Source: an uncultured virus (IMG/VR IMGVR_UViG_3300028591_000107) | Lineage: Duplodnaviria > Heunggongvirae > Uroviricota > Caudoviricetes | Reading direction: 5' to 3' (one strand) | DNA length: 64,000 nt | Virus record (IMG/VR): IMGVR_UViG_3300028591_000107 | Shown here: positions 4,695-61,177 of the stretch, piece by piece | Position numbering within the stretch: position 1 is the stretch's first letter | Layout: each line of letters opens with the position of its first letter | The notes under the pieces: generated by a model | What the model was told of the DNA's origin: nothing | Seen by the model: only the letters and a program-made list of their open reading frames with translations | The model's database searches: none | Translations under genes and position numbers: made by a program

Positions 4695-5157
4695 GATAAA
4701 ACCTATTAGAATTTTTTTAGGTGGTACATGTGCAGAAACTACATGGAGAGATGAATTGATTGAATTGCTTAAAAAATATGATGATATTGAATGGTTTAAT
4801 CCGGTTGTTGAAGATTGGACACCAGAATGTCAGGCAATTGAGGAAGAAGAAAAGAATCATAAATGTAATGTCCATTTATATGTTATAACTGATGCAATGA
4901 TGGGTACATATTCTGTGGCTGAATCAATACATTCTGCCCATTTGGCTAATATGTATGGAACTTCGGTTGATTTAGTTATTTTTGCAATTTTAAAATCAGA
5001 TAAATGGAAAAAACATGATGTAAAATCTTTTGATGCCGATATGAGATTAATAATAGATATAGCACCTCATAATTCTATAGTTACTTGGGTAGATAACATG
5101 GAACAATTATGTGAACATATTATATATTATAATAAAGTTATTGATCCTAATATTTAA
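4687..5157 (+). CDS. nucleoside 2-deoxyribosyltransferase-like protein
   Basis: IFLGGTC...TWRDELI...FNPVVEDW...E...YSVAE pattern of NDT-like family. Confidence 0.75.
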   Translation: MNKIKPIRIFLGGTCAETTWRDELIELLKKYDDIEWFNPVVEDWTPECQAIEEEEKNHKCNVHLYVITDAMMGTYSVAESIHSAHLANMYGTSVDLVIFAILKSDKWKKHDVKSFDADMRLIIDIAPHNSIVTWVDNMEQLCEHIIYYNKVIDPNI

Positions 5158-5163
5158 TAAAGT

Positions 5164-5178
5164 TTATTTTTAATAAAT
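5164..5178 (+). promoter_or_regulatory. putative class II (late?) promoter motif TTATTTTTA..TAAAT
   Basis: ttatttttaataaat about 20 nt upstream of a leader-tagged gene; same motif at 16393, 35694, 44293, 57844. Confidence 0.4.
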
Positions 5179-5197
5179 AGGTTTTTAATAATTATTA

Positions 5198-5590
5198 ATG
5201 AAACAACTTAAAACATATATATTAGAAGCTGATGAGGATGATAAAAAACCATCACTTGAAAGAGGAGATATAAAATTTACTATATGGGAAGAACCTGATA
5301 AAAAGGTACATTGGATAAAAAACAATAATAAATATCAAAAAATAGAATATAAATATGAAAATAAAGAAAAAAATATTTATATTGACTTTTTATTAGGATT
5401 CCAAGATGAAGAGTGGAAATTATGGATAGGTAAGATAGGAAGTAATTCTTATGATAATGATCCTTGGTGCTCATTTGAAACAAACTCATTTTCAGAAGCT
5501 ATTGTTGCAGCATTAGATAAAGTAGAAGAATTTTTAGATGATGTAAAAGAAAATCCAGATAATTGGATTCAATTTTATAAAGATATATAA
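5198..5590 (+). CDS. putative capsid-internal protein with capsid-targeting-like leader
   Basis: N-terminus MKQLKTYILE|A. Confidence 0.6.
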   Translation: MKQLKTYILEADEDDKKPSLERGDIKFTIWEEPDKKVHWIKNNNKYQKIEYKYENKEKNIYIDFLLGFQDEEWKLWIGKIGSNSYDNDPWCSFETNSFSEAIVAALDKVEEFLDDVKENPDNWIQFYKDI

Positions 5591-5592
5591 AT

Positions 5593-5616
5593 ATGGGTAG
5601 CAAATAAGCTACCCAT
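5593..5616. terminator. bidirectional intrinsic terminator
   Basis: atgggtagc-aaataa-gctacccat between convergent genes. Confidence 0.75.
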
Positions 5617-5622
5617 TATATT

Positions 5623-5922
5623 TTAATTATATCTTAAATCAACATCTAATTCATCTTCACAAAATATATACTGATAAAATCGTTTTCCAAAATTATATTC
5701 AAATTTATTATTTGTATTAGTTTCAATACAATAGTCTTCATTATTTTGTAATTCTGGATAATGACTCATATGATCATTAAATATTTTAATTTCTTCTTCT
5801 CTTTTATCTTCAAAGAAATTACGAGCTTTATGTTCATCTAATGAATAATATATGGGATAAGGAGAATCATATCCAATATCATCAAATTCATTAGCGCAAT
5901 ATTTCACTATATATAATTTCAT
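5623..5922 (-). CDS. hypothetical protein
   Basis: ORF downstream of class I promoter motif. Confidence 0.7.
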   Translation of the reverse strand: MKLYIVKYCANEFDDIGYDSPYPIYYSLDEHKARNFFEDKREEEIKIFNDHMSHYPELQNNEDYCIETNTNNKFEYNFGKRFYQYIFCEDELDVDLRYN

Positions 5923-5948
5923 TAAATTTATATTATTAATTTATATAT

Positions 5949-5976
5949 AATATAGAAATTTATAAAGAAAATTTAA
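5949..5976 (-). promoter_or_regulatory. class I promoter motif (degenerate upstream box)
   Basis: TTAAAT-N16-TATATT with preceding C. Confidence 0.5.
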
Positions 5977-5992
5977 AAATATTCAAATTATT

Positions 5993-16392: not shown

Positions 16393-16408
16393 TTATTTTT
16401 ATATAAAT
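16393..16408 (+). promoter_or_regulatory. putative class II (late?) promoter motif
   Basis: ttatttttatataaat about 21 nt upstream of a leader-tagged gene. Confidence 0.4.
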
Positions 16409-16429: not shown

Positions 16430-18049
16430 ATGAAACAAATATCTCAATGTATATTTGAGGCTTCTGGGAAGCCATCTGACCTAAAGAAATATAAAAGAAC
16501 TGAACGTAAAGAGACTGTCCATTTTAGGGGAGGTGATATGTTTGACACCAAGGATCCTGGATATGATGATGAGTTCTCATATTTTGATGGATCTGGTAAT
16601 GGTTATATAAAAGATAAGCAAGGTCATGTTTATGATGTTATTACTTCTGATAGAGCTGGTGATGCCGGTGCTATTGCCGGTGGTTCACATGATTATTTTG
16701 TAACTATTAAGAAAGCTAATGGTAAAGATGATTTCCATGTTCATGGTTATACTGCAATCATGTCAAACCCACATAATGCCGGTTGTATTGAAGATATTAA
16801 AGCTGGTTATTATCTTGAAGATTATATTGCAAAATATTGGAATGAGTGGGATGATAAAGATGGTAAATTTAAGGAATTGGCAGAAAAGGGTGATAAAAAT
16901 GCTAAAGCTTATGATGATCAAAAAGCAGAAAAAATTCAACAAAAGAAAAATGAATTTGACACAAGATACATCGCCATTCCGGAAAGATTTTCGTGGGAAA
17001 TTATTGATGGTAATTTTAATGTCAATCTAAATCTTACAAGTGGTTCAATAAAAGAGCTTGAAAATAAACGTTCTAAATGGCTCGATCAAAATCATTTAAA
17101 ATCTTGGGAAGCAGAAGATAATCCAGAATTTGTAAAAATAAAAGAAGAAATTTCTACAAAGTATAAAGAATTAAAACAAACTATTTTGGATGTATTAATG
17201 CCAGTACTTATTGATAGATTACAGAAAGTATTTAAGACTAAAGATTTGAAATCACTTTCTGGTTTAACAGGTTCGTTTGTATATGATCATAAACTTGCTA
17301 AAGGAAAGAATTTTGGATATATAAAACTTGCAATTGATACAAAGAAAAAAGAATTTGTTTTTAAAGATGAAGTTAACTACAAAATAGTTGATAGTGATAT
17401 TGAATTACAACTTAATGATAATATAGCTGTCTTTAGAGATAAAGCTTCTGATAAAATGCTTGCATTATTCAAAAAAGTTTCTGAGGCATGGAAAAAATCA
17501 GAAGGTAGAAAACAAACTGAATATGTAAAAGACCATTGGGAGAAGATTTATCATGATTCAGCTGGTGGTTATCGTTGGGGAAATCATTCCAAAACAAAAG
17601 GACAAGCTAAAGCCGAAGCTAAACAAGATTTTGAAAATATAGTTAAGGATCATGATTTTAGTAATGTTTCAAAAAATAGATTTGAATATTCACTGGCATT
17701 AGTACAAGTTTATGTTGAAGGAGATATGGAACCTGAAGCAGAACCAATAGAAAAACCACTTGAAAATCCAGAACCAAAAGAAAAGAAAGAACGTGGTAAA
17801 GATACAAAAATGAGTAAAGGTGCTAATGCAGCTGCTTATGATAAAATGAAAGCATGGCATGAAGGTACTCGTAAGCAAAATCTTTCGAATTGTTCTGATG
17901 CAAAACTTAAGATGAACTATAAAGTTTGTAAAGAGCTTGGGTTTGATAAAGAAATGGGATTACTTAAAGCTGAAGCGGAAAAACGTAATATAAACATTGA
18001 AGAAAAACTTTCAATATCTGAAATTATTCTATGTGAATCTGAAGATTAA
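16430..18049 (+). CDS. putative capsid-internal protein with capsid-targeting-like leader (539 aa)
   Basis: MKQISQCIFE|A; C-terminus LSISEIILCE|S echoes the leader; Lys/Glu-rich. Confidence 0.6.
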   Translation: MKQISQCIFEASGKPSDLKKYKRTERKETVHFRGGDMFDTKDPGYDDEFSYFDGSGNGYIKDKQGHVYDVITSDRAGDAGAIAGGSHDYFVTIKKANGKDDFHVHGYTAIMSNPHNAGCIEDIKAGYYLEDYIAKYWNEWDDKDGKFKELAEKGDKNAKAYDDQKAEKIQQKKNEFDTRYIAIPERFSWEIIDGNFNVNLNLTSGSIKELENKRSKWLDQNHLKSWEAEDNPEFVKIKEEISTKYKELKQTILDVLMPVLIDRLQKVFKTKDLKSLSGLTGSFVYDHKLAKGKNFGYIKLAIDTKKKEFVFKDEVNYKIVDSDIELQLNDNIAVFRDKASDKMLALFKKVSEAWKKSEGRKQTEYVKDHWEKIYHDSAGGYRWGNHSKTKGQAKAEAKQDFENIVKDHDFSNVSKNRFEYSLALVQVYVEGDMEPEAEPIEKPLENPEPKEKKERGKDTKMSKGANAAAYDKMKAWHEGTRKQNLSNCSDAKLKMNYKVCKELGFDKEMGLLKAEAEKRNINIEEKLSISEIILCESED

Positions 18050-22064: not shown

Positions 22065-23270
22065 TTAATCTAAATATTTCTTAACGTATTCTAAATCTAC
22101 CACCAGTTTTTTGATTTTTGATGATGGTGTTTCAAACATTGCTTTATTCATAACATTTTCCATACATCCACGCAAACCTCTTGCACCTATTTTATTTTCA
22201 ATAGTTTTTTCAACAATATATTCTAATGCATCATCAGTAAATGATAACTTAACACCATCCAATTCAAATATTTTCTTATATTGTTTTACAAGTGAATTCT
22301 TTGGTTCTTTCAAAATTCTCAATAGAGCTTCTTTATCCAATTCATCTGTATAAGTAATAACAGGTAAACGCCCTATAATTTCTGGAATTAATCCAAATGA
22401 CTTCAAATCCAATGGAGATATTTTTGACATGTAATCTTCATCTTTTTTCTTTGGATCAATATTTGCATTAAATCCCATTACTTGTTTATTACATCTTGAT
22501 TTGATTTTCTTTTCCAAACCAACAAATGCACCACCACATATAAATAATATATTCTTAGTATTTATCTTCACTAACGGGATATCCGGGTGTTTACGACCTC
22601 CTTTTGGTGGTATACCTACAACAGATCCTTCCAAAAGTTTAAGCAATCCTTGTTGTACACCCTCACCAGATACATCTCGTGTTATAGAAGGATTATCACC
22701 TTTTCTTGCAATTTTATCTATTTCATCTATAAACACTATTCCACGTTCTGTCTTTTCTACATCATAATCAGCAGCTTGATATAAATTTACCAATACTGAC
22801 TCAACATCATCACCAACATACCCAGCTTCAGTAAGTGTGGTTGCATCAGCTATAGAAAAAGGAACATTAAGGAGTTTAGCAACAGTCTTTGCAATAAGGG
22901 TTTTACCAGTACCCGTACTACCACACATAAGTATATTCGATTTCTCTATTTCAACATCATCAGTTACATTACAATTAATACGTTTGTAATGATTATATAC
23001 AGCAACAGCAACCCTTTCCTTAACACGATCTTGTCCCATAACATATTGATCAAGAAACTTTTTTATCTCCTTAGGTTTAGGTATGTCTTTTAATATATTT
23101 TTGTTTATTGTATTTTTTGATTCTTGAATAACCTTATGTGCCAATTCTATACATTCAGGACATGCAATAACATTATTACCAATTATCATTACATCCTTTC
23201 CATTTTCTAAAATTTTACCACAAAATGAGCATGTTGGAAATTGTTCTTTAATATTTTTATTATCTGGCAT
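22065..23270 (-). CDS. clpX: ATP-dependent Clp protease ATP-binding subunit ClpX
   Basis: CSFCG...CPEC zinc-binding domain, GSTGTGKT, TEAGYVG, FIDEIDK, RDVSGEGVQQ, GGRKHP, GARGLR. Confidence 0.97.
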   Translation of the reverse strand: MPDNKNIKEQFPTCSFCGKILENGKDVMIIGNNVIACPECIELAHKVIQESKNTINKNILKDIPKPKEIKKFLDQYVMGQDRVKERVAVAVYNHYKRINCNVTDDVEIEKSNILMCGSTGTGKTLIAKTVAKLLNVPFSIADATTLTEAGYVGDDVESVLVNLYQAADYDVEKTERGIVFIDEIDKIARKGDNPSITRDVSGEGVQQGLLKLLEGSVVGIPPKGGRKHPDIPLVKINTKNILFICGGAFVGLEKKIKSRCNKQVMGFNANIDPKKKDEDYMSKISPLDLKSFGLIPEIIGRLPVITYTDELDKEALLRILKEPKNSLVKQYKKIFELDGVKLSFTDDALEYIVEKTIENKIGARGLRGCMENVMNKAMFETPSSKIKKLVVDLEYVKKYLD

Positions 23271-31467: not shown

Positions 31468-31746
31468 TTAGATTTTTTTACAAGCTAGCCATGCTGAATG
31501 GCCACTTGTCTTAAGGAAAAGATTCAATTTCAATCCTTCAATTTCAAAACTTACTCCAAATGGACGTTTTGTGCCTTTAATAAGTTTAACATCCTTCTTT
31601 GTTTCATTTTTGATGGACTGTATCATTGCTTCTGCATAATCATCGAATTTTTCATAACCATTTTCATCCTCCCAACGAAACTTGAGATTAATAAATGTGT
31701 TAAGTACTGTTGAAGAATTTACGAGATTGATAATAGTTGTTTTCAT
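31468..31746 (-). CDS. hypothetical protein
   Basis: RWEDE..YE.F.DY...TKRPFG; own promoter. Confidence 0.7.
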   Translation of the reverse strand: MKTTIINLVNSSTVLNTFINLKFRWEDENGYEKFDDYAEAMIQSIKNETKKDVKLIKGTKRPFGVSFEIEGLKLNLFLKTSGHSAWLACKKI

Positions 31747-31770: not shown

Positions 31771-31799
31771 AATATAGAATAATATTTAAAAAAATTCAA
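31771..31799 (-). promoter_or_regulatory. class I promoter motif
   Basis: TTGAAT-N17-TATATT. Confidence 0.7.
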
Positions 31800-31800
31800 A

Positions 31801-31963
31801 TATAATTTAATTTTCTAAAGAAAATAAATGAATTTAGAATATAATTTAATTTTCTAAAGAAATTAAATGAATTTAGAATATAATTTAATTTTCTAAAGAA
31901 ATTAAATGAATTTAAAATATAATTTAATTTTCTAAAGAAATTAAATGAATTTAGAATATAATT
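31801..31963. repeat. 39-bp intergenic tandem repeat x4.2
   Basis: unit tataatttaattttctaaagaaattaaatgaatttagaa; two single-base variants; no spacers. Confidence 0.95.
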
Positions 31964-31997: not shown

Positions 31998-34900
31998 TTA
32001 TTTGTTGTATTTAATATAATCTTTTAATGATATTCTATCAAAACATTCATCTAAAAATTCATCATATTTATTTGGGTTTTGTAAACTTTCATTTAAACTT
32101 TCATCCAAATGTTTTAATACGGAATTAACTTTTTTACCTCTTTCTTTATTTCCACCAAATAAACCTTTTACAAAGTTTTTTAACTTAGTAAATAATCCAC
32201 CAGATTTTTTTGTGTTTTCTGATTTATGTTGTGCCAATGAATAATCTGAAAATATTTGAGGTAATGTTTTTCCATTTTCATCTTTATAATCTTTCTTTAT
32301 CTTACCATCCTTATCGATTGCATCAGGATATGCATTTTTAACTAATTTAATAGTTTCTTCATCAGGATTTTCTAATTTCTTTGTATACTCTTCTTCTTTT
32401 TTAGCAAGATACTCTTTATCTTCTTCAGTTTCAGCTATTTTTATATTATTTGTTTTTTCTGTAATACATTTAACTGCATATTCTTTATCATTTAAAATTT
32501 TTGCAATATCATCATTAGTTAAATTACCAAAATCAGCACGTTCTTCATCACCTTTATTCCATTTATTTAATTCATATTTTTTATCATCACAAGGTTTATT
32601 TGCAACAATATTATATAAATTTTGTGTTTGTCCGGCTAAAATTTCACCTAACATTTTTTGAATATTAGTTTTTGAAGTACCGCCTTCAATTTCATAAAAT
32701 GTTAATGAATGGAATGCACCTTTTAATGAATATGGATCTTTACGTGGACCTTGTTTATTTGCATCGGCTATATCCATTCCATATACATTTGCAAACATTA
32801 ATATAGGTATCTCTTTATCTGAATCTTTATCATCTGATTCATCTTCTTTTTTATCCTTTTTTTCTTCAGATTCATCAGGTATTGGTGCATCTGATTTTTC
32901 TAATTCATCTTTTGCATCTTTCTTTGAAGTTTCAACACCAGCACTTTTTTCTGCATCTTCAACTTTTTCTAAAGAATTATCATCAACTTTACTTTCATCA
33001 AATTTTAATGGTGCCCATTCTTCTCCTCTTTTCCATTCTCTATCTTTAACTTCTTTAGCAATGCTTTCAACTTTTAATAAGTTTTCTATCATTTTTGTAT
33101 ATGCAGCAATAATTATATCTTCATTTTCTTTATTCATAAATTGATTTCTTAATGCAATAACATCAATAAATGCATATACATATGCTTCATATGTTTTATC
33201 ATTATCTGGACCTTTCCATATAGTATAACATACAGCTAATTCTTCAATATCAGTTGGTCCAAATTTATCATTAGATTTATCATCATCATCTGTTCTCTTT
33301 TTAACAATTTCATAAGGTGTTGGTTTATAATCTTTATCATATACAAAATGACTAGCTTTACCTGTATCTTTAGTACTAAAAATTGATTGTAATAACATTC
33401 TTGTATTACCAAGATATGTATTCTTTCCTTTAGTTTCTGTGTTATTATCTTTACCTATTTGATCTAAATATTTTCTTAAATCTATAAAATTAGCTTTAAT
33501 ATCATCTATAGAATATTTAGATTTTTTATTTTCTTCTGCTTCATTAATTATATAATCATATAAAGATTTTATTGAAGATTCATTTTGGGATTCTTCTTTA
33601 ACTCGTTTACCATAGAAAATAATTGCATCTTGTTTATCGATGTTTTCTTTATATTTATCATTAAATTCTTTTAATTTATCTTCTATTTCTTTCTTTTTAT
33701 CGTCATCTAAATCTTCATTATTTTTTAATTCTTCTAAAAATTTAATATTTACATCTTTAACATATTCTTTAATTTTATCATATTGTTCTTTAAAATTTGT
33801 TACTTTATCTTTACGTACACCATTTTCACCAACCTTATATATATAATTATTCTTATCTTTTTCTCCACCTAAACGAACTCTAAATCCACCATTATTTTGA
33901 GGTTCAACTTCTACTGATGGAATTGTAACTAACATACTTGTAGCAGCATTAACTATATCTTCAACCGGAATATTTTGTGTAGCTTCAGCTGTTGCACCAA
34001 TTGCATATATAAAACCATCTTTGGCATATTTCCCTGCATTTTTTAATAATTCCATGGCAACATCTTTAGGTACTTTAATAGAATATACAGACCCTGCTAA
34101 TGCTTTAATACCTTTTAATACTTGATTAACAGCATTATTTGGATCTACTGTAGAACCTGCTGCTTTTACAGCCTTTGTTAATGCTTTACCATATACACTA
34201 TCTGGAGTACCATTAACACATAAATCTATCATTGAATCACTAGGCATTTTTGCAATATCATCTGGATTGATAGATTCTTTACCAATATCCTTTAATGCCG
34301 CAACTGATGAAGTTTTATCATTATCGATAAATTTTTTCATAACATCTTCGGCTTTTTGACCAACATGTCCTGTGTATTTAACAACTTTATCAGCTTGAGG
34401 AATGTGTTCTGCAAATGAATCTGTTATTGATTTAAATGATGCCTGGAAATCTTCCCAACTAAATTTTCCTTCTTTAATCATTTTAACAAGAGAACCAAAT
34501 GCTCTAGTTAATATATCTGGTTGTATACCTAAATTAGCATTAGCCATTAAATCACCACCACTTTTAACAAATGCATCCCAAATTTTTCCAAATGAATTTG
34601 CAATTGAACCAAAGTTAAATGCTAATGCAATAATTGAGGCAATCATTCCAATTGCTGTTATCCATTTTTGACGTTTGGTATAAGTACCCCATTCTTGTTT
34701 TACTTTCTTCCATTGTTTTACCATTTTATAAATTTTATATCCATTCCATAATAATTTACAAACAATAGGAACAATTAAAGCAAGAAATGTTCCAGGGAAT
34801 AAACCACAAACAAAACCAGGTATAACTACACAAACACCGGCCCAAACCATTAATTGTTTAAAGCCTTCCCAAAGCATTTGTTTAGTACTCTTTTTATCTG

Positions 34901-35678
34901 CCTGTTTAACTACTTCTCCTTTATCATTAGTCTTATCTTCTTGATCTTCCTCTTCATTAATTTGATTTTTAATAGAATTGGCAAATGATTCATATACATC
35001 ATTTTTCTTTAAATAATCTGGATTATCAGCTAAACTTGCACCTATAGCTTCAACGTCTTGAGATTCTTTATCGGTGTCAAATCCCATCTTTTTAAATAAT
35101 CCTTCAAGCGTACAATCAAATTTTGATAACAAACTTACTAATTTAATTGCCATTTCTTTAACAGTTTTAACGGCCTTTGTTGCATATTCTTTAATAAGTT
35201 CATTAACTTCCTTTATTTTTGTCTTTAATGTCTCAATTGCTTGATTAACTTTATCTTTACCTAATTCCCATGTTTGTTTAATATTATCAACTAAATTTTT
35301 TGATGCATTTTTAACTTTATCAGTAAACTTACCCTCAGTTATTAATTGACCATCAACTATAAGACTTTCATAAATATTTAATTCTTCTAATAATTTATCT
35401 CTATAATCTTCACATATATAAATCATTAAATCTCTAAATGTTTGAGATTCATTTAAAGTTAATTCATATTGTTTACTATTTTCATTAAATTGATTAGCTT
35501 TATATAAATTATCATAAGTATAATTTTTAAATCTATATAAAAGATTATCAATATCTTTACCATGTTCAGTAATTAATTTAGATTCATTAATTATTCTAGT
35601 ATTATTATCTAATGATTCTTGAACAAATTGCAAGTATTCATTATTATTTTGAGAAATATAATTATTTAAAGATTTCAT
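31998..35678 (-). CDS. 1226-aa putative virion-internal/ejection protein with leader, transmembrane segments and many (I/L)xE sites
   Basis: MKSLNNYISQ...; IINE|S, LITE|H, LITE|G, QINE|E; internal KSLYDYIINE|A; hydrophobic LMVWAGVCVVIPGFVCGLFPGTFLALIVPIVCKLLW and WITAIGMIASIIALAF. Confidence 0.6.
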   Translation of the reverse strand: MKSLNNYISQNNNEYLQFVQESLDNNTRIINESKLITEHGKDIDNLLYRFKNYTYDNLYKANQFNENSKQYELTLNESQTFRDLMIYICEDYRDKLLEELNIYESLIVDGQLITEGKFTDKVKNASKNLVDNIKQTWELGKDKVNQAIETLKTKIKEVNELIKEYATKAVKTVKEMAIKLVSLLSKFDCTLEGLFKKMGFDTDKESQDVEAIGASLADNPDYLKKNDVYESFANSIKNQINEEEDQEDKTNDKGEVVKQADKKSTKQMLWEGFKQLMVWAGVCVVIPGFVCGLFPGTFLALIVPIVCKLLWNGYKIYKMVKQWKKVKQEWGTYTKRQKWITAIGMIASIIALAFNFGSIANSFGKIWDAFVKSGGDLMANANLGIQPDILTRAFGSLVKMIKEGKFSWEDFQASFKSITDSFAEHIPQADKVVKYTGHVGQKAEDVMKKFIDNDKTSSVAALKDIGKESINPDDIAKMPSDSMIDLCVNGTPDSVYGKALTKAVKAAGSTVDPNNAVNQVLKGIKALAGSVYSIKVPKDVAMELLKNAGKYAKDGFIYAIGATAEATQNIPVEDIVNAATSMLVTIPSVEVEPQNNGGFRVRLGGEKDKNNYIYKVGENGVRKDKVTNFKEQYDKIKEYVKDVNIKFLEELKNNEDLDDDKKKEIEDKLKEFNDKYKENIDKQDAIIFYGKRVKEESQNESSIKSLYDYIINEAEENKKSKYSIDDIKANFIDLRKYLDQIGKDNNTETKGKNTYLGNTRMLLQSIFSTKDTGKASHFVYDKDYKPTPYEIVKKRTDDDDKSNDKFGPTDIEELAVCYTIWKGPDNDKTYEAYVYAFIDVIALRNQFMNKENEDIIIAAYTKMIENLLKVESIAKEVKDREWKRGEEWAPLKFDESKVDDNSLEKVEDAEKSAGVETSKKDAKDELEKSDAPIPDESEEKKDKKEDESDDKDSDKEIPILMFANVYGMDIADANKQGPRKDPYSLKGAFHSLTFYEIEGGTSKTNIQKMLGEILAGQTQNLYNIVANKPCDDKKYELNKWNKGDEERADFGNLTNDDIAKILNDKEYAVKCITEKTNNIKIAETEEDKEYLAKKEEEYTKKLENPDEETIKLVKNAYPDAIDKDGKIKKDYKDENGKTLPQIFSDYSLAQHKSENTKKSGGLFTKLKNFVKGLFGGNKERGKKVNSVLKHLDESLNESLQNPNKYDEFLDECFDRISLKDYIKYNK

Positions 35679-37677: not shown

Positions 37678-37706
37678 AATATAGAAAATAAATAAAAATG
37701 ATTCAA
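37678..37706 (-). promoter_or_regulatory. class I promoter motif
   Basis: TTGAAT-N17-TATATT. Confidence 0.7.
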
Positions 37707-42016: not shown

Positions 42017-43237
42017 TTATCCCAATAATTCCGAAACAATTGCTCTATCCTTAGCGGGTATTTTTGATGCAATTATTTTCATTGAACTTGTTAATGAATA
42101 TTTTACTTTATTTGATGTTATTCCTTCATTTTCTGCAATCTCATTTATAGACATAGGAAATGGTAAATCAATACCGAATTTTTTCTTAAGTATACGTCTA
42201 TCTAAAGCATTTAGATTACAAAGTAATTTGTTAATCATTTCTTTAAATATGTTTTGACGTTCCATTTGTTGTATAGATTCATCCTCTACTGCAAATTCAT
42301 CATTAGCAACTTCAGATATTTGATTATCATGATAACAATCATCTGTATGAGGATTTACTGAATCTAATCTGATTACGTTAATATTACCATTTTCTTTATC
42401 TTTTATAGATTTTGGAACTTTTATTATCTTACTATAATTATTTAATTCATTTAATATAATTGCTTTTATCCAGAAGAAAGATATAGAACTAAATGATGCC
42501 TTTTTAATGTATTTGTTTGTCCATTCCAAAAAATCATTTTTAGATGCAAATCCTTCTAAAGGAATATTTTTTAATGTTTCATCTAATAACTTAGTATATT
42601 TAAAATTTCTTAAAATTAATTCTTTTGCATCTTCATATGAAAATACTTTGTATTCTGATTTTTTAATATCTTCAATAATAGATACTCGTAAATTTGAACG
42701 TTCACTATCAAATTTATTAAACGCCATTAATAAACCTAAGTTACCTATTTGTATTAAATCTTCAAAAGGTAAACCTAAGTTTTGATATCTTTTGGCACAT
42801 TCTATAGCTAACTTTAAATTGTTTTTGATAAATATCTCTCTATTTTCATCACAAAATTCAATATCTTCCGATTCTCCTTGTGGATGTAAAATATATTCTC
42901 TTTTTACTTCATTGAAATAAATATCGATATTGTTATCAAATGTTTTTGTTGAAACATATTTTTTTACAAGTTTATGTCTCGTTTGCATCTTTAAATCATT
43001 CATGAAAGTATCTGAAAAATGATCTTTTCGTTTTTTCAATAATTCATGACATGTTTCTAAATAAAAATCTACGATTGATTTCTCTGCACAATCTTTAATC
43101 ATTTTTGAATCATAAACTATTTGATCTAATAATTTATTTCCATTTTCTTCTTCAATATGATTTGATTGTATGTAATTTTCAATTTTGTTTAATGATGTTT
43201 GACTTAGTTTAAATTTTCTACCCACTTTATATTCCAT
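42017..43237 (-). CDS. phage sigma70-family RNA polymerase sigma factor (with insertion in region 2)
   Basis: NNLKLAIECAKRYQNLGLPFEDLIQIGNLGLLMAFNKFD (regions 2.1-2.2); FSSISFFWIK; region 4 LNALDRRILKKKFGI..MSINEIAENEGIT. Confidence 0.88.
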   Translation of the reverse strand: MEYKVGRKFKLSQTSLNKIENYIQSNHIEEENGNKLLDQIVYDSKMIKDCAEKSIVDFYLETCHELLKKRKDHFSDTFMNDLKMQTRHKLVKKYVSTKTFDNNIDIYFNEVKREYILHPQGESEDIEFCDENREIFIKNNLKLAIECAKRYQNLGLPFEDLIQIGNLGLLMAFNKFDSERSNLRVSIIEDIKKSEYKVFSYEDAKELILRNFKYTKLLDETLKNIPLEGFASKNDFLEWTNKYIKKASFSSISFFWIKAIILNELNNYSKIIKVPKSIKDKENGNINVIRLDSVNPHTDDCYHDNQISEVANDEFAVEDESIQQMERQNIFKEMINKLLCNLNALDRRILKKKFGIDLPFPMSINEIAENEGITSNKVKYSLTSSMKIIASKIPAKDRAIVSELLG

Positions 43238-54526: not shown

Positions 54527-54548
54527 AGGGAGAATTTAATTTCTCCCT
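54527..54548 (-). terminator. terminator hairpin closing the leader-tagged gene array
   Basis: agggagaa-tttaat-ttctccct. Confidence 0.65.
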
Positions 54549-54553
54549 GTGTA

Positions 54554-54967
54554 TTATTTTCTAATTATATTTACTTTTATTTTATTTTTTAATATACTAT
54601 CATATTTATCATCTGTATGTTTTTTAATATATTCTTTAATATCTTCATCAGTAACATTATTTAAATCATTTAATTCCCCATCGATTTCCCATACCGTTAA
54701 TCCATATTTTTCTTTATCTTTAAATGATTTAACATATTCCGAATAACAATTTTTTATTTCTCTAATATTTAAAACATACATATAAAATTTAATTCCATAA
54801 TCTCCTCTAATAGTTAATTGTCTATCTTTATATGTTTCATGTAAGCATTTACTTAAATAATCATCTGATTGTATATCATTTAATATTAATTCCATTAACA
54901 CATATACATCATCATTAAGATTTTGTAATGTTAATTTTTCTAAAATTATATTTTTTAAATTTTTCAT
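54554..54967 (-). CDS. leader-tagged putative capsid-internal protein
   Basis: MKNLKNIILE|K. Confidence 0.6.
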   Translation of the reverse strand: MKNLKNIILEKLTLQNLNDDVYVLMELILNDIQSDDYLSKCLHETYKDRQLTIRGDYGIKFYMYVLNIREIKNCYSEYVKSFKDKEKYGLTVWEIDGELNDLNNVTDEDIKEYIKKHTDDKYDSILKNKIKVNIIRK

Positions 54968-54986
54968 TTTAATTTAAAATATGTAT

Positions 54987-55430
54987 TTAAATTTTTATTG
55001 GTTCATTAAGTTTAAAATTTTCTAAATCTTGTTTAATATCATAAAATTCTCCACCCATACCAGATGGTGAACTATTATTTACTTCTATTTCAACAGATCT
55101 TAATGTACCTATAGGATTTCCATCTCTCCATCCACAATCCCATTCAAAACAAAGTTTACCACTTAATTTACTTGGTAATTGTATGTTGATTTTTTCTGGT
55201 AAATCTTTATTGTCTTTTACAACAGCTTTAATTATGTTTTTAATATTCTTATCAATCCATTGATTAATCCAACCAAAATATTTAGATAAAAATTCTTCTT
55301 TATAATATTTTGGGTTAACTGGTTTAATATATTTTTTAGGACATTTTAATTCATGTCCTGGAAATTCAATTACATCAGTCCAATAATTAAATTTAACTGA
55401 TTCTATTATAAAATCTTTTATGTTTTTCAT
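54987..55430 (-). CDS. leader-tagged putative capsid-internal protein
   Basis: MKNIKDFIIE|S. Confidence 0.62.
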   Translation of the reverse strand: MKNIKDFIIESVKFNYWTDVIEFPGHELKCPKKYIKPVNPKYYKEEFLSKYFGWINQWIDKNIKNIIKAVVKDNKDLPEKINIQLPSKLSGKLCFEWDCGWRDGNPIGTLRSVEIEVNNSSPSGMGGEFYDIKQDLENFKLNEPIKI

Positions 55431-55436
55431 TTATGA

Positions 55437-55766
55437 TTATTTTTCACATCTTTTTACTTTTTCTAAATCATTACCTTTAAGAATCGTAGCCCATTTAGGT
55501 GCATTTTCTGGATCTTCACTATCGCGTACAATAGTTCCCCAATAACTATCTTTACCGTGCCAAGCTACACATGCTTCAGGTTCTGAGAAATTTCCTTTAG
55601 TATTATCATTAACTTCCCAATATTCAGCGTTAGAAATAGGTTCTTCCTTAATATCGGCTTCCCAGTTATTAGAATATTTCATGTCATTTCCAACACCCTT
55701 TACATAAAATCTAATAATATATTTTGGTTGTTTTGCTTCTGTTATCTTTTGTATAATATTTTTCAT
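55437..55766 (-). CDS. leader-tagged putative capsid-internal protein (start reassigned to 55766)
   Basis: MKNIIQKITE|A. Confidence 0.6.
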   Translation of the reverse strand: MKNIIQKITEAKQPKYIIRFYVKGVGNDMKYSNNWEADIKEEPISNAEYWEVNDNTKGNFSEPEACVAWHGKDSYWGTIVRDSEDPENAPKWATILKGNDLEKVKRCEK

Positions 55767-55773
55767 TTTTCTA

Positions 55774-56013
55774 TTAATATATTTTCTCATTAATTTCTTT
55801 TAATAAATCTTCTATGCAATCCATGCATCTCTTATTGAATTTTTGATTATCTGACTTATATTGTTCCATACCTGTTTTTACACCTTTAATGAACCAACTA
55901 AGTATATTACCACAATATTCAGGACCCCATTCTTTTAACCAAGATCTACCATAATTTTCTATTTCATTAGATTTGATTTTAGATTCATTTATCTTTAATT
56001 TAATATCTTTCAT
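55774..56013 (-). CDS. leader-tagged putative capsid-internal protein
   Basis: MKDIKLKINE|S. Confidence 0.6.
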   Translation of the reverse strand: MKDIKLKINESKIKSNEIENYGRSWLKEWGPEYCGNILSWFIKGVKTGMEQYKSDNQKFNKRCMDCIEDLLKEINEKIY

Positions 56014-56038
56014 TTATATTTAATTATAATTAATTTAT

Positions 56039-56281
56039 TTATATACAATTTTCTTCTATTATTGTTTCCTCTTTAATAGCTAATTGTAACATTTTAAGTT
56101 TTTGTGTTTCTCCAATAAAATAAATTCCTGAATGAGGATCCCATCCTATTTTAGTTCCTCCAATATCTTTAATTTTTTTACCTTTATCCGATATTGTCCA
56201 AGTATCTGCATTTTCATTTTTTAAATATAATGCAGATAATGCTTCTGTATTTTCATTGATTTTTGTTGTAATATCTTTCAT
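56039..56281 (-). CDS. leader-tagged putative capsid-internal protein
   Basis: MKDITTKINE|N. Confidence 0.6.
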   Translation of the reverse strand: MKDITTKINENTEALSALYLKNENADTWTISDKGKKIKDIGGTKIGWDPHSGIYFIGETQKLKMLQLAIKEETIIEENCI

Positions 56282-56294
56282 AATTATAAGTTAT

Positions 56295-56570
56295 TTAATT
56301 TTTATTTTTAAAAGCATCTGGATATTTTTCCATTGCTTCTTTTGCTTCTGATGTTAAATTATTTAAGTCAATTGGAATAAATCTTAAATTTTTAGCAGAT
56401 TTAATTATTTTTTTAGAAGCTTGAGATCTTTTATCCATATCATCAGCATAATATTGTGCCATTTCCATTTTTGGGAATTTTGCACAAATAAATGCATTTT
56501 CTGTATCTAATACTACACAGGTAAAATTATCTTTTTTTGTTTCTAATATATATTCTTTAATATTTTTCAT
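56295..56570 (-). CDS. leader-tagged putative capsid-internal protein
   Basis: MKNIKEYILE|T. Confidence 0.62.
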   Translation of the reverse strand: MKNIKEYILETKKDNFTCVVLDTENAFICAKFPKMEMAQYYADDMDKRSQASKKIIKSAKNLRFIPIDLNNLTSEAKEAMEKYPDAFKNKN

Positions 56571-56588
56571 AATTTATCTCTATATTTT

Positions 56589-57497
56589 TTATTTTGTAAC
56601 GGATTTCATAAATTTATCATCTTTAAGTTTGTTCATTGCAGAACCTTCTTTATCTGGATAAGCAGAAGATTTATCATCAACGTCTGTACCACCTTTAAAT
56701 ACTTGAGGCATATCATCTCTTGAAGGTGCCGATTCGAATGGATAGTTATTTGCTTTTATATCTAAAAGTCTTTCTGTAATATAATTGATTATATCTTTTT
56801 TTATTTGCTTTGATAATTTTTTTGAAGATAACTTAGGAATATATTTACAATAAACATCTATTAAAGAATCATCAAAAGTATCTTCAAGATATTTTCTAAT
56901 TTTCTTTTCATCAAAATTTTTATCAAAGAAATTAGGACCATCTACTTTATTTGATGGGAGCTTACCATTATTATTGTTATTATCTGCTTTAACGGAAGCA
57001 ATTGTACCTTGAACTGCCTTAAGCATTTGAATTGGAGAAATATCACCATCATAATTGAATGATAATATTTTCCCATTTGGATTTAATGTTATTGCTTGTA
57101 ACCAAGTATGATGACCATCAATAACATAATTTTGTCTAAAAGTGACAATTGGTTTATTTATTTCAATAGGATCACTAAATGTTTTCTTTAATGATTCTTC
57201 GTTAACTAAAGCATGTTTTAATGATTTGTCTAAGTCAATTTCTTTTTGAGTTGGCATTAATTGTGATACTGGTATATTCTTTACAGAAAATGTTAATTTA
57301 GTATCTCCTAACACTCCCCCAAAACCATCCTCAAGCAGAGTTTTTGCTTTAGGATCTTCTAACATCTTATTAAGTGTATCTACATAATCTTCATAATTTT
57401 TATGTTTCAACCACTTCTCAAGCTCTTTACGACGTTGCTTATTAGAAGTAGTTGAAACTTCTCGAGATTCAAATATGTAATTATTTAATGATTTCAT
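56589..57497 (-). CDS. ParB/Srx-fold protein with capsid-targeting-like leader
   Basis: MKSLNNYIFE|S; LMPTQKEID...PIVTFRQNYVIDGHHTW. Confidence 0.65.
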   Translation of the reverse strand: MKSLNNYIFESREVSTTSNKQRRKELEKWLKHKNYEDYVDTLNKMLEDPKAKTLLEDGFGGVLGDTKLTFSVKNIPVSQLMPTQKEIDLDKSLKHALVNEESLKKTFSDPIEINKPIVTFRQNYVIDGHHTWLQAITLNPNGKILSFNYDGDISPIQMLKAVQGTIASVKADNNNNNGKLPSNKVDGPNFFDKNFDEKKIRKYLEDTFDDSLIDVYCKYIPKLSSKKLSKQIKKDIINYITERLLDIKANNYPFESAPSRDDMPQVFKGGTDVDDKSSAYPDKEGSAMNKLKDDKFMKSVTK

Positions 57498-57506
57498 TTA
57501 TGTAAA

Positions 57507-57830
57507 TTATGATAATGTTTCATTATAATACTTACAAACCTTTTCTGCTTCTTTAACATTTTTAAATACTGCAACCTTTGGATTGTTTTTATCTTTATCT
57601 TCAATATTTATAAATGCATTCCATGCTAAAATATCTCTATCATCATCAGGATTTACAAATACAACATCATCATTATGTTTTTTAACAATTACATTATATG
57701 GATATGCATCACCATCTTCATCTATCCAACCCAAAATGATGTTATCACCATCCTTTAAATCTAATATATTAACATAATATTTATTTATATCAACTTTAGT
57801 TTCATTAATATAATCTTTAATTGATTTCAT
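57507..57830 (-). CDS. leader-tagged putative capsid-internal protein
   Basis: MKSIKDYINE|T. Confidence 0.62.
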   Translation of the reverse strand: MKSIKDYINETKVDINKYYVNILDLKDGDNIILGWIDEDGDAYPYNVIVKKHNDDVVFVNPDDDRDILAWNAFINIEDKDKNNPKVAVFKNVKEAEKVCKYYNETLS

Positions 57831-57843
57831 ATATAAAATAATA

Positions 57844-57858
57844 ATTTATTAAAAATAA
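57844..57858 (-). promoter_or_regulatory. putative class II (late?) promoter motif
   Basis: minus strand ttatttttaataaat, between a terminator and the 8-gene tagged run. Confidence 0.4.
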
Positions 57859-57880
57859 TATTTATTAATGTTAAAAAAAT

Positions 57881-57909
57881 AGAAGATTGTTTCTTAGAAA
57901 CAATCTTCT
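57881..57909 (-). terminator. terminator hairpin
   Basis: agaagattgtttct-t-agaaacaatcttct then a T-rich tract on the minus strand. Confidence 0.75.
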
Positions 57910-57914
57910 TTATG

Positions 57915-58436
57915 TTATTTTCTATATTCTAATGAGTCTTCGTCAAATTGTATTTCAATTGGATATTCATTTTCATTATTTGATTCTGATGCTTTAAATA
58001 TATCAATCAATTTTTCTTGTACATTTTCTTCGGTAACATCTATCATATCAAACCTATCAAATTCAATAATATATACCAAATTTTTAATTTTAAAATAGTC
58101 AAGTTTTACGTCATCATTAGTTTTCTTTACATCATATTTCGAATCCCATTCAATATATTCTTTAGGTTCTATGTCAATATGTTCAAATGTATCATATTCA
58201 AAATGTACGTCAACAATGTTTTCAAAATTACTTCCAAAGAATTTTTCCGAATAATCTTGTCCGGATGGCAATTGATTTAACCATCTGTCATCCATATATT
58301 GTTGTATATCTGATTCTTGAAATGTTTCAGGAGCCTGTAATATAATTTCTTCAGGTTGAACTATATATGTTGCAATAACAGAGTTCAATCTGTAATTTTC
58401 AACAGCTTCTTTAATATATGTTTTAAATGATTTCAT
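57915..58436 (-). CDS. leader-tagged acidic putative capsid-internal protein
   Basis: MKSFKTYIKE|A. Confidence 0.62.
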   Translation of the reverse strand: MKSFKTYIKEAVENYRLNSVIATYIVQPEEIILQAPETFQESDIQQYMDDRWLNQLPSGQDYSEKFFGSNFENIVDVHFEYDTFEHIDIEPKEYIEWDSKYDVKKTNDDVKLDYFKIKNLVYIIEFDRFDMIDVTEENVQEKLIDIFKASESNNENEYPIEIQFDEDSLEYRK

Positions 58437-58442
58437 AATAAA

Positions 58443-58784
58443 CTATACAGATATTTTTTCTATATTTGTCATCAAATCATATGCAAACAATAATACATCT
58501 TCCAAAATTTCATCACAATATTTTTTATATTTTATATTATTTTTTAATATTTCAGATAATGTATTTTCAAATTCACTATAATCTGATAATTCCCCTCTAT
58601 CAATTGCATCATTCAAATTATCTGGATCATCAAATTGACCTATTTCATTCATTATACTATCTGGAGTGATTTTACATTTTTTAAGTGCTTCACCAGATAA
58701 TTTTATGATGTCATTTTGACTAATATATTTATTATTCCAAAAGTTATTGGTTTTTTCTACAATATATGTATCAATATTTTTCAT
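58443..58784 (-). CDS. leader-tagged putative capsid-internal protein
   Basis: MKNIDTYIVE|K. Confidence 0.6.
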   Translation of the reverse strand: MKNIDTYIVEKTNNFWNNKYISQNDIIKLSGEALKKCKITPDSIMNEIGQFDDPDNLNDAIDRGELSDYSEFENTLSEILKNNIKYKKYCDEILEDVLLFAYDLMTNIEKISV

Positions 58785-59959
58785 TATTCTTCTATTGATA
58801 TATTCTCTTTAATATTAATATAATAAGGACCTTCATGCATATTACGTTCAATATCATTTTGACATTCCTTCATAAGTTCATATACATTAGTCAATAATTG
58901 TTTAACTTGTTTATTAGTTAAAATAAAGTTAACAACCTTATTACAGAAATATGTAATTTGTGAAGGCGCACATTTATATTTCTTTGCTAAATCTTTATTA
59001 GATATCTTTTTATGATCATTAAGTCCTCTAGCAGCATAAAATATATTCATAGTTTTCTTATCGAAATTTTTCTCAATAAGTTCAAATGCTTTATCCCAAG
59101 ATTTTTTGATATCTTCTTGATCCAAGTTTGCAGAAGCATCATCAACTTGACCCATAAAGTCAAATAATGATTTATTACCATCTTCACCATTCTTAACTGT
59201 CTTATCACCTGATATAGAATAGTTTCTTGTATTCTTTCCTGTTTCTGCCTTTTCTTTTCTTTGTTGAGATACTGGAATCTTCACCAAGTGTGACAATTCC
59301 TTAATTCCATCAAGAATAAAATTTCGAATAATCCATGCAGCATATTGACCAAATGTCAATTTAGTAACATCTTGATCATTACCATCTACATCCTTTTTAA
59401 CTCTTTTAGGGGCACCATATTGTTGCATTGCGTAATGTAAACCTTTATTACCCTCTTGCACCAAATCATCAAATCCCATATTTGATTTACCATCAAATTG
59501 GTGAGCAATTTTCATTACAAGTGGTTGATATTGTTTAGCTGCATTATTACGACCTTGTTCAGTATCAAGAGAAAGAATAAAATATTCAGCAGGTCTTTCC
59601 TTATTTAATATATGTTTAAATTCTTCTTCTGTAAAGAATACTGGAATTTCACGATATCTTCCAGATTTTACGACAGCATATATGTTATCCCATAAATCTT
59701 TATTTGATGCATTGGCTCTACCTTTATTATAAAAACCGGCTAATACATTATCTTCATCTGATTCCAATTCTGTAAGATAGGTGTTATTATGATCTATTAA
59801 ATATTGAATAACATATTTTGTATTAGGAGATAATACTTTGTCTGCTAACTTTAAGTATTTTTCTAAATCACTAGAACTAATATAATTTATTGTTTTGTCA
59901 CCTACATTAATTTTATTAATTTTTGACTGTGCTTCAACAATTGTTGTTAAATTTTTCAT
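58784..59959 (-). CDS. sigma70-family sigma factor with capsid-targeting-like leader
   Basis: MKNLTTIVE|A; QYQPLVMKIAHQF...FDDLVQEGNKGLHYAMQQY...TFGQYAAWIIRNFI...LVKIP; region 4-like IFYAARGLNDHKKISNKDLAKKY. Confidence 0.85.
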   Translation of the reverse strand: MKNLTTIVEAQSKINKINVGDKTINYISSSDLEKYLKLADKVLSPNTKYVIQYLIDHNNTYLTELESDEDNVLAGFYNKGRANASNKDLWDNIYAVVKSGRYREIPVFFTEEEFKHILNKERPAEYFILSLDTEQGRNNAAKQYQPLVMKIAHQFDGKSNMGFDDLVQEGNKGLHYAMQQYGAPKRVKKDVDGNDQDVTKLTFGQYAAWIIRNFILDGIKELSHLVKIPVSQQRKEKAETGKNTRNYSISGDKTVKNGEDGNKSLFDFMGQVDDASANLDQEDIKKSWDKAFELIEKNFDKKTMNIFYAARGLNDHKKISNKDLAKKYKCAPSQITYFCNKVVNFILTNKQVKQLLTNVYELMKECQNDIERNMHEGPYYINIKENISIEE

Positions 59960-60010: not shown

Positions 60011-60070
60011 TGCAAAATTATTAATAATAATAGAATTAAATTGAAAAAATTCAATCATTAATTTCTATTT
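60011..60070. promoter_or_regulatory. divergent promoter region
   Basis: Minus: TTGAAT-N16-TATTAT (60054..60027) and TAATTTTGCA (60020..60011, Bacteroidota -7 type). Plus: TTGAAA...CTATTTT. Central ttgaaaaaattcaa is quasi-palindromic. Confidence 0.55.
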
Positions 60071-60113
60071 TAACATTAATTAAACTTTTATTAAAAATAA
60101 TTTATTTTAGATA

Positions 60114-60667: not shown

Positions 60668-61177
60668 ATGATTAATCCAGAAGAAAAACAAAAGCAATTG
60701 CAAGAATTTGATGCTTCTTTGGAAGGAAAAACACTTGATGAATTAAAGGCTATTGAACAAGACATTATTAAAGAAGCCGAAGATTTGGATAAAGAAGTAT
60801 CTGAAACAGAATTTAAATTACCTAAAAAGAATTATGCAACAGTAGCTAAGGCTATACATACACTTCTTGAGAAAAAGACAGTACAATGGCAATTTACTCT
60901 TGGAATGATTGCATTATATGATTTTTGGGATGAAAAGAAAAATCCAGGTAAAGTTAAGTATCCTGTGTTAGACAGTACTTTACGTACTCTTGGGGAAGCT
61001 TCATTTACTGGTTATGAAGAGTGGGCTGCCGTAGTAGCTATTAATAAGTATTTTGAAGATATTCGTGAAGAATATATCAATATAACTGAAAAGGTTTATG
61101 ACGTAGCATCTAAACACAATGCAGTAATTGATAGAATTCAAAAGGCAACTCCAATTGGTGAAGTTAAACAACAATAA
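60668..61177 (+). CDS. hypothetical helical protein
   Basis: 169-aa ORF followed by a terminator. Confidence 0.75.
   Translation: MINPEEKQKQLQEFDASLEGKTLDELKAIEQDIIKEAEDLDKEVSETEFKLPKKNYATVAKAIHTLLEKKTVQWQFTLGMIALYDFWDEKKNPGKVKYPVLDSTLRTLGEASFTGYEEWAAVVAINKYFEDIREEYINITEKVYDVASKHNAVIDRIQKATPIGEVKQQ

Follow-up and report, generated by a model that had tools for sequence, protein, structure and literature searches.

The stretch of DNA analysed here, 64,000 nucleotides (nt) of the uncultured-virus record IMGVR_UViG_3300028591_000107 in IMG/VR, a large phage from the gut (hereafter, the window), carries on its minus strand at positions 58784..59959 a gene for a sigma-70-family factor of 391 amino acids (aa), which starts with the short leader MKNLTTIVE and stands first in an array of genes sharing a similar leader, or tag. 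Taken as a whole, the data are best explained by assuming that this tagged sigma factor is packaged into the virion and serves the early promoters of the phage, a reading to which we assign a probability of about 0.45. With respect to its parts, packaging of the sigma factor in the virion appears likely from the sequence comparisons, and a role in transcription at time zero of the infection has to be considered as somewhat doubtful. All facts given below on genes beyond the 64 kb come from related genomes and not from the window's own genome, among them the complete 376-kb contig G002, G003, a 410-kb IMG/VR record that is 97% complete and underlies locus L007, and G001. An exact stretch of 34 nt gave no match in viral or metagenome contigs.

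A genuine sigma-70-family factor with an additional N-terminal domain

The identification of the gene is based on its open reading frame (ORF) and on matches to families, profiles and folds. Pfam Sigma70_r2 is found at residues 142-182 (E 6e-8, 32.8 bits against a cut-off of 24), and the PHROG family phrog_351, 'RNA polymerase sigma factor', matches the protein with an E of 6.7e-13. A profile of 39 homologs retrieves 58 sigma chains from the PDB over positions ~130-228 (best E 2.8e-7), the alignment to SigA/RpoD covering regions 2.1-3.0 up to the 'RIPV' at the start of region 3.0. For the AlphaFold2 model, which has a mean predicted local distance difference test score (pLDDT) of 73.8, all 49 of the PDB matches listed by Foldseek are sigma chains of RNA polymerase (RNAP)/sigma entries, and VIA-align places model residues 122-222 on regions 1.2+2 of RpoS (Z 12.3, root-mean-square deviation (rmsd) 2.7 A, 86 residues). 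The clear sigma region 2 which the earlier note, written from the sequence alone, had claimed for this protein is thus confirmed by Pfam, phrog_351, the PDB profile and the VIA-align Z score. According to the VIA-align and hidden Markov model alignments to SigA, regions 1.2, 2 and the start of 3.0 together occupy residues ~122-228 (59276..59596, minus strand).

The region 4-like helix-turn-helix described in the same note comprises residues ~300-358 (58886..59062, minus strand). No Pfam region-4 match above the cut-off is found in the protein; the model helices 301-311, 321-327 and 332-348 fit a helix-turn-helix, and VIA alignments extend to model residues ~348-361, placed on sigma70 residues ~600-613 in region 4, with a large overall rmsd due to a different placement of the domains. 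The leader MKNLTTIVE|A and the ~130 additional residues at the N-terminus are present as well. Encoded by nine codons (59933..59959, minus strand), the leader would, by prediction, be cut off after Glu9 to give a mature N-terminus AQSK, and residues 1-13 have a pLDDT below 50, i.e., form a flexible extension. Residues ~14-121 (59597..59920, minus strand) make up a confidently predicted, family-specific helical domain with pLDDT blocks of 62-93 and with Y35, L54, N58, Y61, N71 and F76 as invariant columns in an alignment of 38 homologs; these residues fall outside the model ranges aligned to PDB sigma chains. Overall, the gene product is a true member of the sigma-70 family, comprising regions 1.2, 2 and 3.0, a probable region 4 and the N-terminal domain peculiar to this family.

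No cultured close relative of the tagged sigma was detected by tblastn against 50,697 phage records at E <= 1e-5, and a single-sequence scan of IMG/VR gave no match; an alignment-based scan of IMG/VR yielded 11 loci. A word-indexed search found 38 full-length homologs with 40-90% identity, and an exhaustive search found 246 relatives at E <= 1e-3. The wider family set considered below was compiled from 185 proteins of both searches, of which 53 outside the range of 340-520 aa were removed, leaving 132.

Conservation of the leader and of the gene order

The tagged sigma is, as stated in the earlier note, the first gene of the tagged array. This array (54554-59959) consists of 11 genes in two operons, all on the minus strand, and the other ten genes start with MK[NSD][IL]xx[YFK]IxE. 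The window and its relatives together supply 124 distinct tagged proteins, which yield the consensus M K [DNS] [IL] x x [YF] I x E; 64% of them have S, A or G right after the Glu, in contrast to a background of 15%. In G002 the strict 10-aa leader is found at the start of 27 of the 582 ORFs, as compared to 0.06 expected from interior windows, and matches to the leader as a DNA pattern number 73 in G003 and 20 in G001, against 1 and 0, respectively, for the reversed pattern used as a control. Altogether, 27-73 proteins per genome are tagged, the tag occurring on ~8% of the genes and on unrelated bodies. The copies use different codons for the leader but retain its residues, and selection therefore acts on the peptide. 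The 9-aa pattern of the sigma type would occur by chance in a given MK-starting protein with a frequency of ~0.15%, 182 of the 582 ORFs in G002 having such an MK start.

The leader is also kept by most homologs of the sigma factor, and a lack of it in the homologs, which the earlier note had named as speaking against its reading, is thus not observed. In the alignment of the 38 close homologs M1 is invariant and K2 nearly so, and in 34 of them residue 9 or 10 is the Glu of a hydrophobic-x-Glu motif. Within the wider family, 100 of the 132 members carry the leader in a 10-residue (39), a 9-residue (53) or a 6-residue form (8), including almost T4-like examples such as MKKFSEFITEA, and several of the 32 members that fail the leader patterns deviate at residue 2 only. 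In all 11 IMG/VR loci the sigma gene comes first and faces the same divergent block; the gene after it is tagged in 10 of the 11, and the tagged array behind it comprises from 1 to ~20 genes of changing content. Weak evidence is further provided by internal cleavage-like sites of the form [IL]xE[SAG], of which 24 are found in tagged proteins as opposed to 31 expected (z -1.3) and 269 in untagged proteins as opposed to 222 expected (z +3.3). As judged from these patterns, the tag is best read as a capsid-targeting propeptide of the T4/PAU type, with the sigma factor as a conserved bearer.

Likeness to the internal proteins of T4 and PAU

In the T4 genome (NC_000866) ipII and ipIII start with MKTYQEFIAE|A and ipI with MKTFKEF...ITE|A. 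According to passages of PMC9026906, the first 10 residues of IPIII are enough for capsid targeting, residues 4 and 7 of the leader serve targeting and residues 8 and 10 processing by gp21, and the T4-type protease acts inside proheads. In terms of sequence, these targeting and processing positions are the constrained positions of the tag in the window: the array genes match the T4 capsid-targeting sequence at positions 1, 2, 4, 7, 8 and 10, and both leaders have hydrophobic and aromatic residues at positions 4 and 7, respectively, and Ile and Glu at positions 8 and 10, with a small residue coming next. The likeness extends to the organisation of the loci, since the internal protein loci of T4 and the arrays related to that of the window are alike in being hypervariable and composed of small proteins sharing only the tag, and to the presence of a gp21-type (S77) protease in the phage lineage. 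In contrast to T4, the cargo considered here is a 45-kDa sigma factor, and its leader is of a 9-residue form without the aromatic residue.

Amongst the cultured relatives, the strict 10-aa leader is found once in pT24 and not in PTm1 or PAU. In PAU, 19 ORFs, most of them in the head module, start with MK[TS][LI]xxL[YF]E, and this 9-residue leader is carried by the gene noted as 'scaffolding' and by four of the five 'internal capsid protein' genes (gp142, gp154, gp199 and gp270, with gp70 lacking it). The leader MKNLTTIVE of the tagged sigma fits the PAU form MK-x-[LI]-x-x-hydrophobic-x-E (compare MKTISKLYE, MKSLTNLYE and MKTLTQLYE). The caveat raised in the earlier note, namely that the leader of the sigma has 9 rather than 10 residues, is settled by these genes, as the 9-residue form is standard on the PAU scaffold and on most of its annotated internal capsid proteins. 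Many PAU leaders (for example those at 113313, 106051, 200549 and 9332) run on as ...YE[AS]KLNE[AS], giving a second hydrophobic-x-Glu six residues later, and in this they recall T4 IPI, the propeptide of which is longer and likewise has two sites.

PAU resembles the phages considered here in having a related major capsid protein (MCP), an S77 protease and a sigma-70-like protein annotated as lying inside the capsid. The latter, gp1 (NC_019521: 94-1182, 'RNA polymerase sigma factor'), bears the note 'internal capsid vertex protein (mango) subunit 2'; in the same record gp10 (4439-6070) is noted as 'internal capsid vertex protein (mango) subunit 1' and gp9 as 'capsid decoration protein (banana)'. 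A packaged sigma factor is therefore less unprecedented than had been assumed at the outset. According to parts of PMC5646251, the capsids of PAU and other jumbo phages have strong densities on the inside, below the fivefold vertices; in this paper the PAU MCP is given with 585 residues in full and with 520 in an asterisked second entry, taken as the virion form, and its searched text does not name gp1.

As to the protease that would process the leader, Peptidase_S77, the family of T4 gp21, is found above the cut-off in all three related records searched, and is also present in PAU, pT24 and PTm1; it was not found in the 64-kb window. In the clade it makes up the N-terminal portion of a ~540-570-aa protein, the gene of which adjoins that for the MCP; the PTm1 record names this protein 'prohead core scaffolding protein and protease'. 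The N-termini of the S77 proteins (MTNKRCLIYE|T, MTNKRCLVYE|T and MANKKCMVFE|T) have a hydrophobic-x-Glu motif themselves, at residues 8-10, and the genes immediately 5' of those for the protease and the MCP in G003 form a row of tagged genes.

Head-packaged proteins that are ejected and control the first transcription, as is proposed here for the sigma factor, include T4 Alt, the virion RNAP (vRNAP) of N4 and that of phiKZ and SPN3US. While these are whole polymerases or a modifying enzyme, the protein in question would be only the specificity subunit for the host core enzyme. As far as passages of the respective papers go, Alt modifies the host RNAP (PMC9026906), and in phage 201phi2-1 an N-terminal propeptide of a vRNAP subunit is removed by a gp21-like protease (PMC5694885). 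The RpoD-like sigmas of jumbo phages belong to the same protein family as the tagged sigma, and are expected to redirect the host core RNAP and to be made after infection (PMC7824862, PMC13282480); the passages of these two papers considered here mention neither a propeptide nor packaging.

Promoter-like motifs and a second sigma factor

By word enrichment in the upstream regions of G002, two classes of promoter-like motifs, A and C, were found. Class A is ATATTTGAATTTTTT...TTCTATATTATATTTGTAA, i.e., TTGAAN-N16-TATATT, in 35 of 43 cases, and precedes 55 genes of G002, of which one is tagged; those with an annotation include thymidylate kinase, NrdD, topoisomerase II, an exonuclease and an HNH endonuclease. 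Class C is TTATTTTTA[TA][TA][TA]AA, which resembles the T4 late motif TATAAATA, and precedes 35 genes of G002, comprising those for the protease, the MCP, sheath, tube, a baseplate wedge protein and three giant proteins as well as the sigma gene and the first genes of five tagged arrays, further tagged arrays being located just 3' of a class C gene. The class C motif is thus common to the sigma gene, the tagged arrays and the head and tail genes, a pattern in line with their co-regulation.

Both classes are enriched in the window, with 12 class A sites, one of them at 37678-37706, as compared to 2.5 expected and nine class C sites as compared to 1.08 expected, numbers that none of 100 shuffles reaches in either case. 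Four of the nine class C sites lie ahead of tagged genes (5198, 16430, 57507 and the sigma gene). The motif upstream of the sigma gene, TTATTTTTAATAAA, is at 60087..60100 and a second one, ahead of the remaining tagged genes of the array, is at 57845..57858, both found by the motif scan on the minus strand. A motif of class C type in the sense of the sigma gene is found in all of 12 sigma-upstream regions, at varying distances and weakest in L007. In addition, a degenerate class A-like element, TTGAAT-N16-TATTAT, is present upstream of the sigma gene (60027..60054, minus strand), and such an element occurs in most of the 12 regions, with better copies at the same position in L001, L002, L003 and L009. 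Promoters of the Bacteroidota type, TTTG-N19-21-TAnnTTTG, are not enriched in the window (4 against 3.2 expected), and a generic sigma-70 promoter scan of the array (86 against 66 expected) is uninformative at 25% G + C.

Of the two sigma-70-family genes in the window, the other one, at 42017..43237 on the minus strand, codes for an untagged protein of 406 aa (Pfam Sigma70_r2 1.1e-6, phrog_351 1e-22) which is 24% identical to the tagged sigma over region 2, and whose ortholog in G002 lies behind a class A promoter. Residues 16-25 of this second sigma (LNKIENYIQS) resemble a degenerated version of the tag. A homolog of T4 gp55 was not found in G001-G003 at E <= 1, a search that is uninformative at such a distance.

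Proposed course of infection and alternative explanations

On these grounds, the tagged sigma would be made alongside the head proteins from a promoter of the structural-gene type, and its short N-terminal propeptide, of the T4/PAU capsid-targeting type, would dock it onto the scaffolding core of the assembling prohead. There, a T4 gp21-type (S77) prohead protease would cut after Glu9 (I-V-E|A), and the mature sigma (AQSK) would stay in the head together with the DNA and dozens of similarly tagged small proteins. In the next infection the sigma might be ejected, bind to the host core RNAP and direct it to the bipartite early promoters TTGAAN-N16-TATATT, which would drive, among others, the gene for the second, untagged sigma. 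The result would be a cascade in which the packaged sigma reads class A, giving the second sigma, which in turn reads class C, giving heads, tagged cargo and the new tagged sigma. It is from comparisons of sequences and models that we infer docking, cleavage, presence in the virion, ejection and the choice of promoters, and the chain as a whole, including the time-zero role, may be placed anywhere between rather doubtful and slightly short of an even chance.

Several observations speak against this course of events. The class A-like element upstream of the gene may mean that the sigma is also made early, like an ordinary sigma, and class A may, by its letters, also be readable as TTTG-N19-TAnnTT and so by the sigma-A of the host. 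Unlike the internal proteins of T4, the tagged proteins are not basic, and the tagged set is very large, with at least 70 members in G003 in contrast to three in T4. The leader of the sigma lacks the aromatic residue at position 7, which is a targeting residue in T4, and four of the 38 close homologs have no Glu at residue 9 or 10, P0033 and P0035 having L-T-E at residues 4-6 and P0036 and P0038 being without the motif. The S77 protease is seen in the relatives only, the window covering 64 kb of its genome. PAU gp1, in turn, has no leader and is slightly closer to the second sigma (E 3.4e-6) than to the tagged one (E 0.001), and no paper text giving the basis for the notes of the PAU record, which are depositor labels, was found in the literature searched.

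Some of these features would also be shown by an ordinary intracellular sigma of the middle or late phase which is made de novo and in which the N-terminal peptide is a pro-sequence or a regulatory tag, an explanation that we regard as improbable. In a variant of it, the prohead protease would remove the peptide and could in this way tie the activity of the sigma to the formation of heads, and pro-sigma-E and pro-sigma-K, which are processed during sporulation in Bacillus, provide a parallel. The early-type, class A-like element in the window and in most relatives is in line with such a protein, as is the fact that each genome has two sigma genes together with two or more promoter classes specific to the phage, where one sigma per class would suffice without packaging. 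The same holds for the finding that no late sigma of gp55 type was detected by sequence, and therefore some phage sigma must read class C, if it is a promoter; moreover, the sigmas of jumbo phages are generally assumed in passages of PMC7824862 and PMC13282480 to act after their synthesis. However, an ordinary sigma leaves unexplained why the same tag is found on ~8% of the genes with unrelated bodies and, in PAU, on the scaffold and annotated internal capsid proteins, and why the sigma gene constantly stands at the head of a tagged array, and the T4-type protease, going by the passages cited above, is one acting inside proheads.

Alternatively, the protein might be packaged as a structural or architectural part of the head interior, the sigma fold being reused without any role in transcription after ejection. 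The note on PAU gp1, the densities under the fivefold vertices reported in the part of PMC5646251 considered and the extra conserved N-terminal domain of ~110 residues, which has no sigma counterpart, would fit such a part. We nevertheless judge it to be quite improbable, as the core-RNAP-binding and -10-binding regions and the region 3.0 motif are conserved as in working sigmas, and as gp1 is only distantly related and without the leader, the profile of the tagged-sigma family finding no member in PAU, pT24 or PTm1. Very improbable, finally, is a leader that has nothing to do with the capsid and acts as a degron for a phage ClpXP or as a translation-initiation feature of this class of genes. 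The window does encode a ClpP (2312-2914) and a ClpX with zinc finger (22065-23270), and AT-rich genomes favour MK starts, as is evident from the 182 of 582 ORFs mentioned above. However, the variation of the codons at constant residues and the Glu followed by a small residue, which fits a protease site, argue against such a leader, and ClpP was found in only one of the four leader-bearing genomes searched, namely in G002 and not in G003 (with its 73 tagged genes), G001 or PAU. ClpXP is thus an unlikely reader of the tag, weakened in particular by the absence of ClpP from G003 and PAU.

Other genes of the tagged arrays

Within the array of the window, terminator-like hairpins separate the sigma gene and the genes for proteins of 113 aa and 173 aa from the eight further genes. 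The 113-aa protein (58443..58784, minus strand) starts with MKNIDTYIVE|K, and the 173-aa protein (57915..58436, minus strand), a conserved companion of the sigma, with MKSFKTYIKE|A. Orthologs of the latter are present in 10 of the 11 related loci with 35-83% identity, which makes it better conserved than the sigma itself, and residues M1, K2, Y7, I8 and E10 of its leader are invariant. Its model (pLDDT 84) gave no clear fold match, the best VIA Z being 5.5 over 48,161 chains, and there was no BFVD match at E <= 0.001, while the matches in the atlas were to unnamed viral clusters only. A prediction of the complex of the sigma and the 173-aa protein had a score of 0.00, which is no verdict and weighs neither way.

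The sigma operon is closed by a hairpin with a 13-bp stem followed by a T run (57881..57909, minus strand), and another terminator-like hairpin lies past the last tagged gene (54527..54548, minus strand). Between them, all on the minus strand, are the eight further tagged genes at 57507-57830, 56589-57497, 56295-56570, 56039-56281, 55774-56013, 55437-55766, 54987-55430 and 54554-54967. No Pfam family matches them at E <= 0.01 except for a sub-threshold match of MDN1_4th to 57507-57830 (E 0.0057, 17 bits against a cut-off of 27). The 302-aa product of 56589-57497 (MK.LN.YIFESREV...), kept in nearly all related arrays, has a weak PHROG match (phrog_2859, 1.8e-8) and contains a ...VIDGHHTW... stretch, which presumably resembles ParB/sulfiredoxin-like domains. 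Outside the array, tagged genes on the plus strand code for a protein of 539 aa (16430..18049, MKQISQCIFE|A) with a class C motif ahead of it at 16393-16406, and for one of 130 aa (5198..5590, MKQLKTYILE|A) with a class C motif ahead of it at 5164-5177.

Of 106 tagged proteins compared to Pfam, nine have matches, among them three to DUF285 and others to a zeta-toxin-like kinase, ferritin, a HAD hydrolase, GNAT and a nucleotidyltransferase. As far as can be told from family matches, this shows a diverse cargo, without deciding the question of packaging. Three tagged proteins encoded at L009:16970-19788 start with MKNLNQYIQE and contain DUF285 / BspA-like repeats (Pfam up to 6.5e-99), an unexpected type of cargo for a head-internal protein. 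In G003, dozens of genes in tandem start with MKKLNQFITE, for example at 232-238, 250-257 and 266-272 kb, the tagged paralogs having undergone a large expansion specific to this lineage.

RNA-library contigs from four runs of two studies match parts of three genes exactly, namely those for the sigma factor and the 173-aa protein and the divergent gene for a 169-aa protein; these contigs give presence only, and neither starts, strand nor timing, DNA carry-over being possible. In the metatranscriptome run X21, contig depth is 157 for 60668-61177 (plus strand) and 37 for 57915-58436 (minus strand), with little or no cover of neighbouring parts; as contig depth cannot rank genes, this is a mere hint of abundant transcription.

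Further features of the window and its relatives

The window has a G + C content of ~25% and encodes a T4-type family B DNA polymerase with ~23% identity to gp43 of T4-like phages, both subunits of topoisomerase II, RNase H, helicases, a QueC-like enzyme, ClpP (plus strand, Pfam 2.4e-25) and ClpX (minus strand, AAA_2 and the ClpX zinc finger). The nearest relatives of the MCP of G002 are found in an uncultured huge phage (38% identity), the Tenacibaculum phages pT24 and PTm1 (35-38%), the Sphingomonas phage PAU (34%) and the Prevotella Lak megaphages (31%). Shine-Dalgarno-like words are rarer 5' of the genes of the window (1.2% of 82 genes) than in random 17-mers (5.9%); such a scarcity would agree with a putative host belonging to the Bacteroidota.

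A tandem array of a 39-bp unit in 4.2 copies (31799-31963, 97% matching) lies just 5' of a class A promoter and a small gene (31468-31746). At 31998-35678 on the minus strand lies an ORF of 1226 aa without family match, the start of which, MKSLNNYISQ, is leader-like with Gln replacing Glu, and which has a class C-like motif ~32 nt 5' of it. The segment 38000-42000 has a very low G + C content of 17-20% and encodes a 549-aa protein of a glycosyltransferase family and two paralogs of ~283 aa.

Implications for the start of viral transcription

Phage transcription is known to start either with the host holoenzyme, sometimes together with an injected modifier such as T4 Alt, or with an injected complete RNAP as in N4, phiKZ and crAss-like phages. 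The combination proposed here is one of known kinds, i.e., of cargo with a capsid-targeting sequence, phage sigma factors and transcription factors delivered by the virion. For a packaged sigma factor as such, no paper was found in the literature searched, the only trace being the GenBank note of PAU. In its widest form, the proposal would be that a clade of uncultured ruminant-gut jumbo phages, kin to PAU and the Lak megaphages, packages a sigma factor by means of a T4-type propeptide along with dozens of effector proteins bearing the same tag, and uses it at time zero to read early promoters which the sigma of the host, probably a member of the Bacteroidota, reads poorly; stated in this breadth, we consider it as rather unlikely.

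If true, however, a packaged sigma would constitute a third way to start viral transcription besides the host holoenzyme and the injected whole polymerase, and as a cheap intermediate between the two it would explain the use of promoters that the host reads poorly. The finding also indicates that the capsid-targeting tag of T4 is of far greater age and wider distribution than the T-even phages, which provides a simple sequence rule to predict the ejected proteome of uncultured giant phages, which is probably rich in proteins for host takeover and anti-defence.

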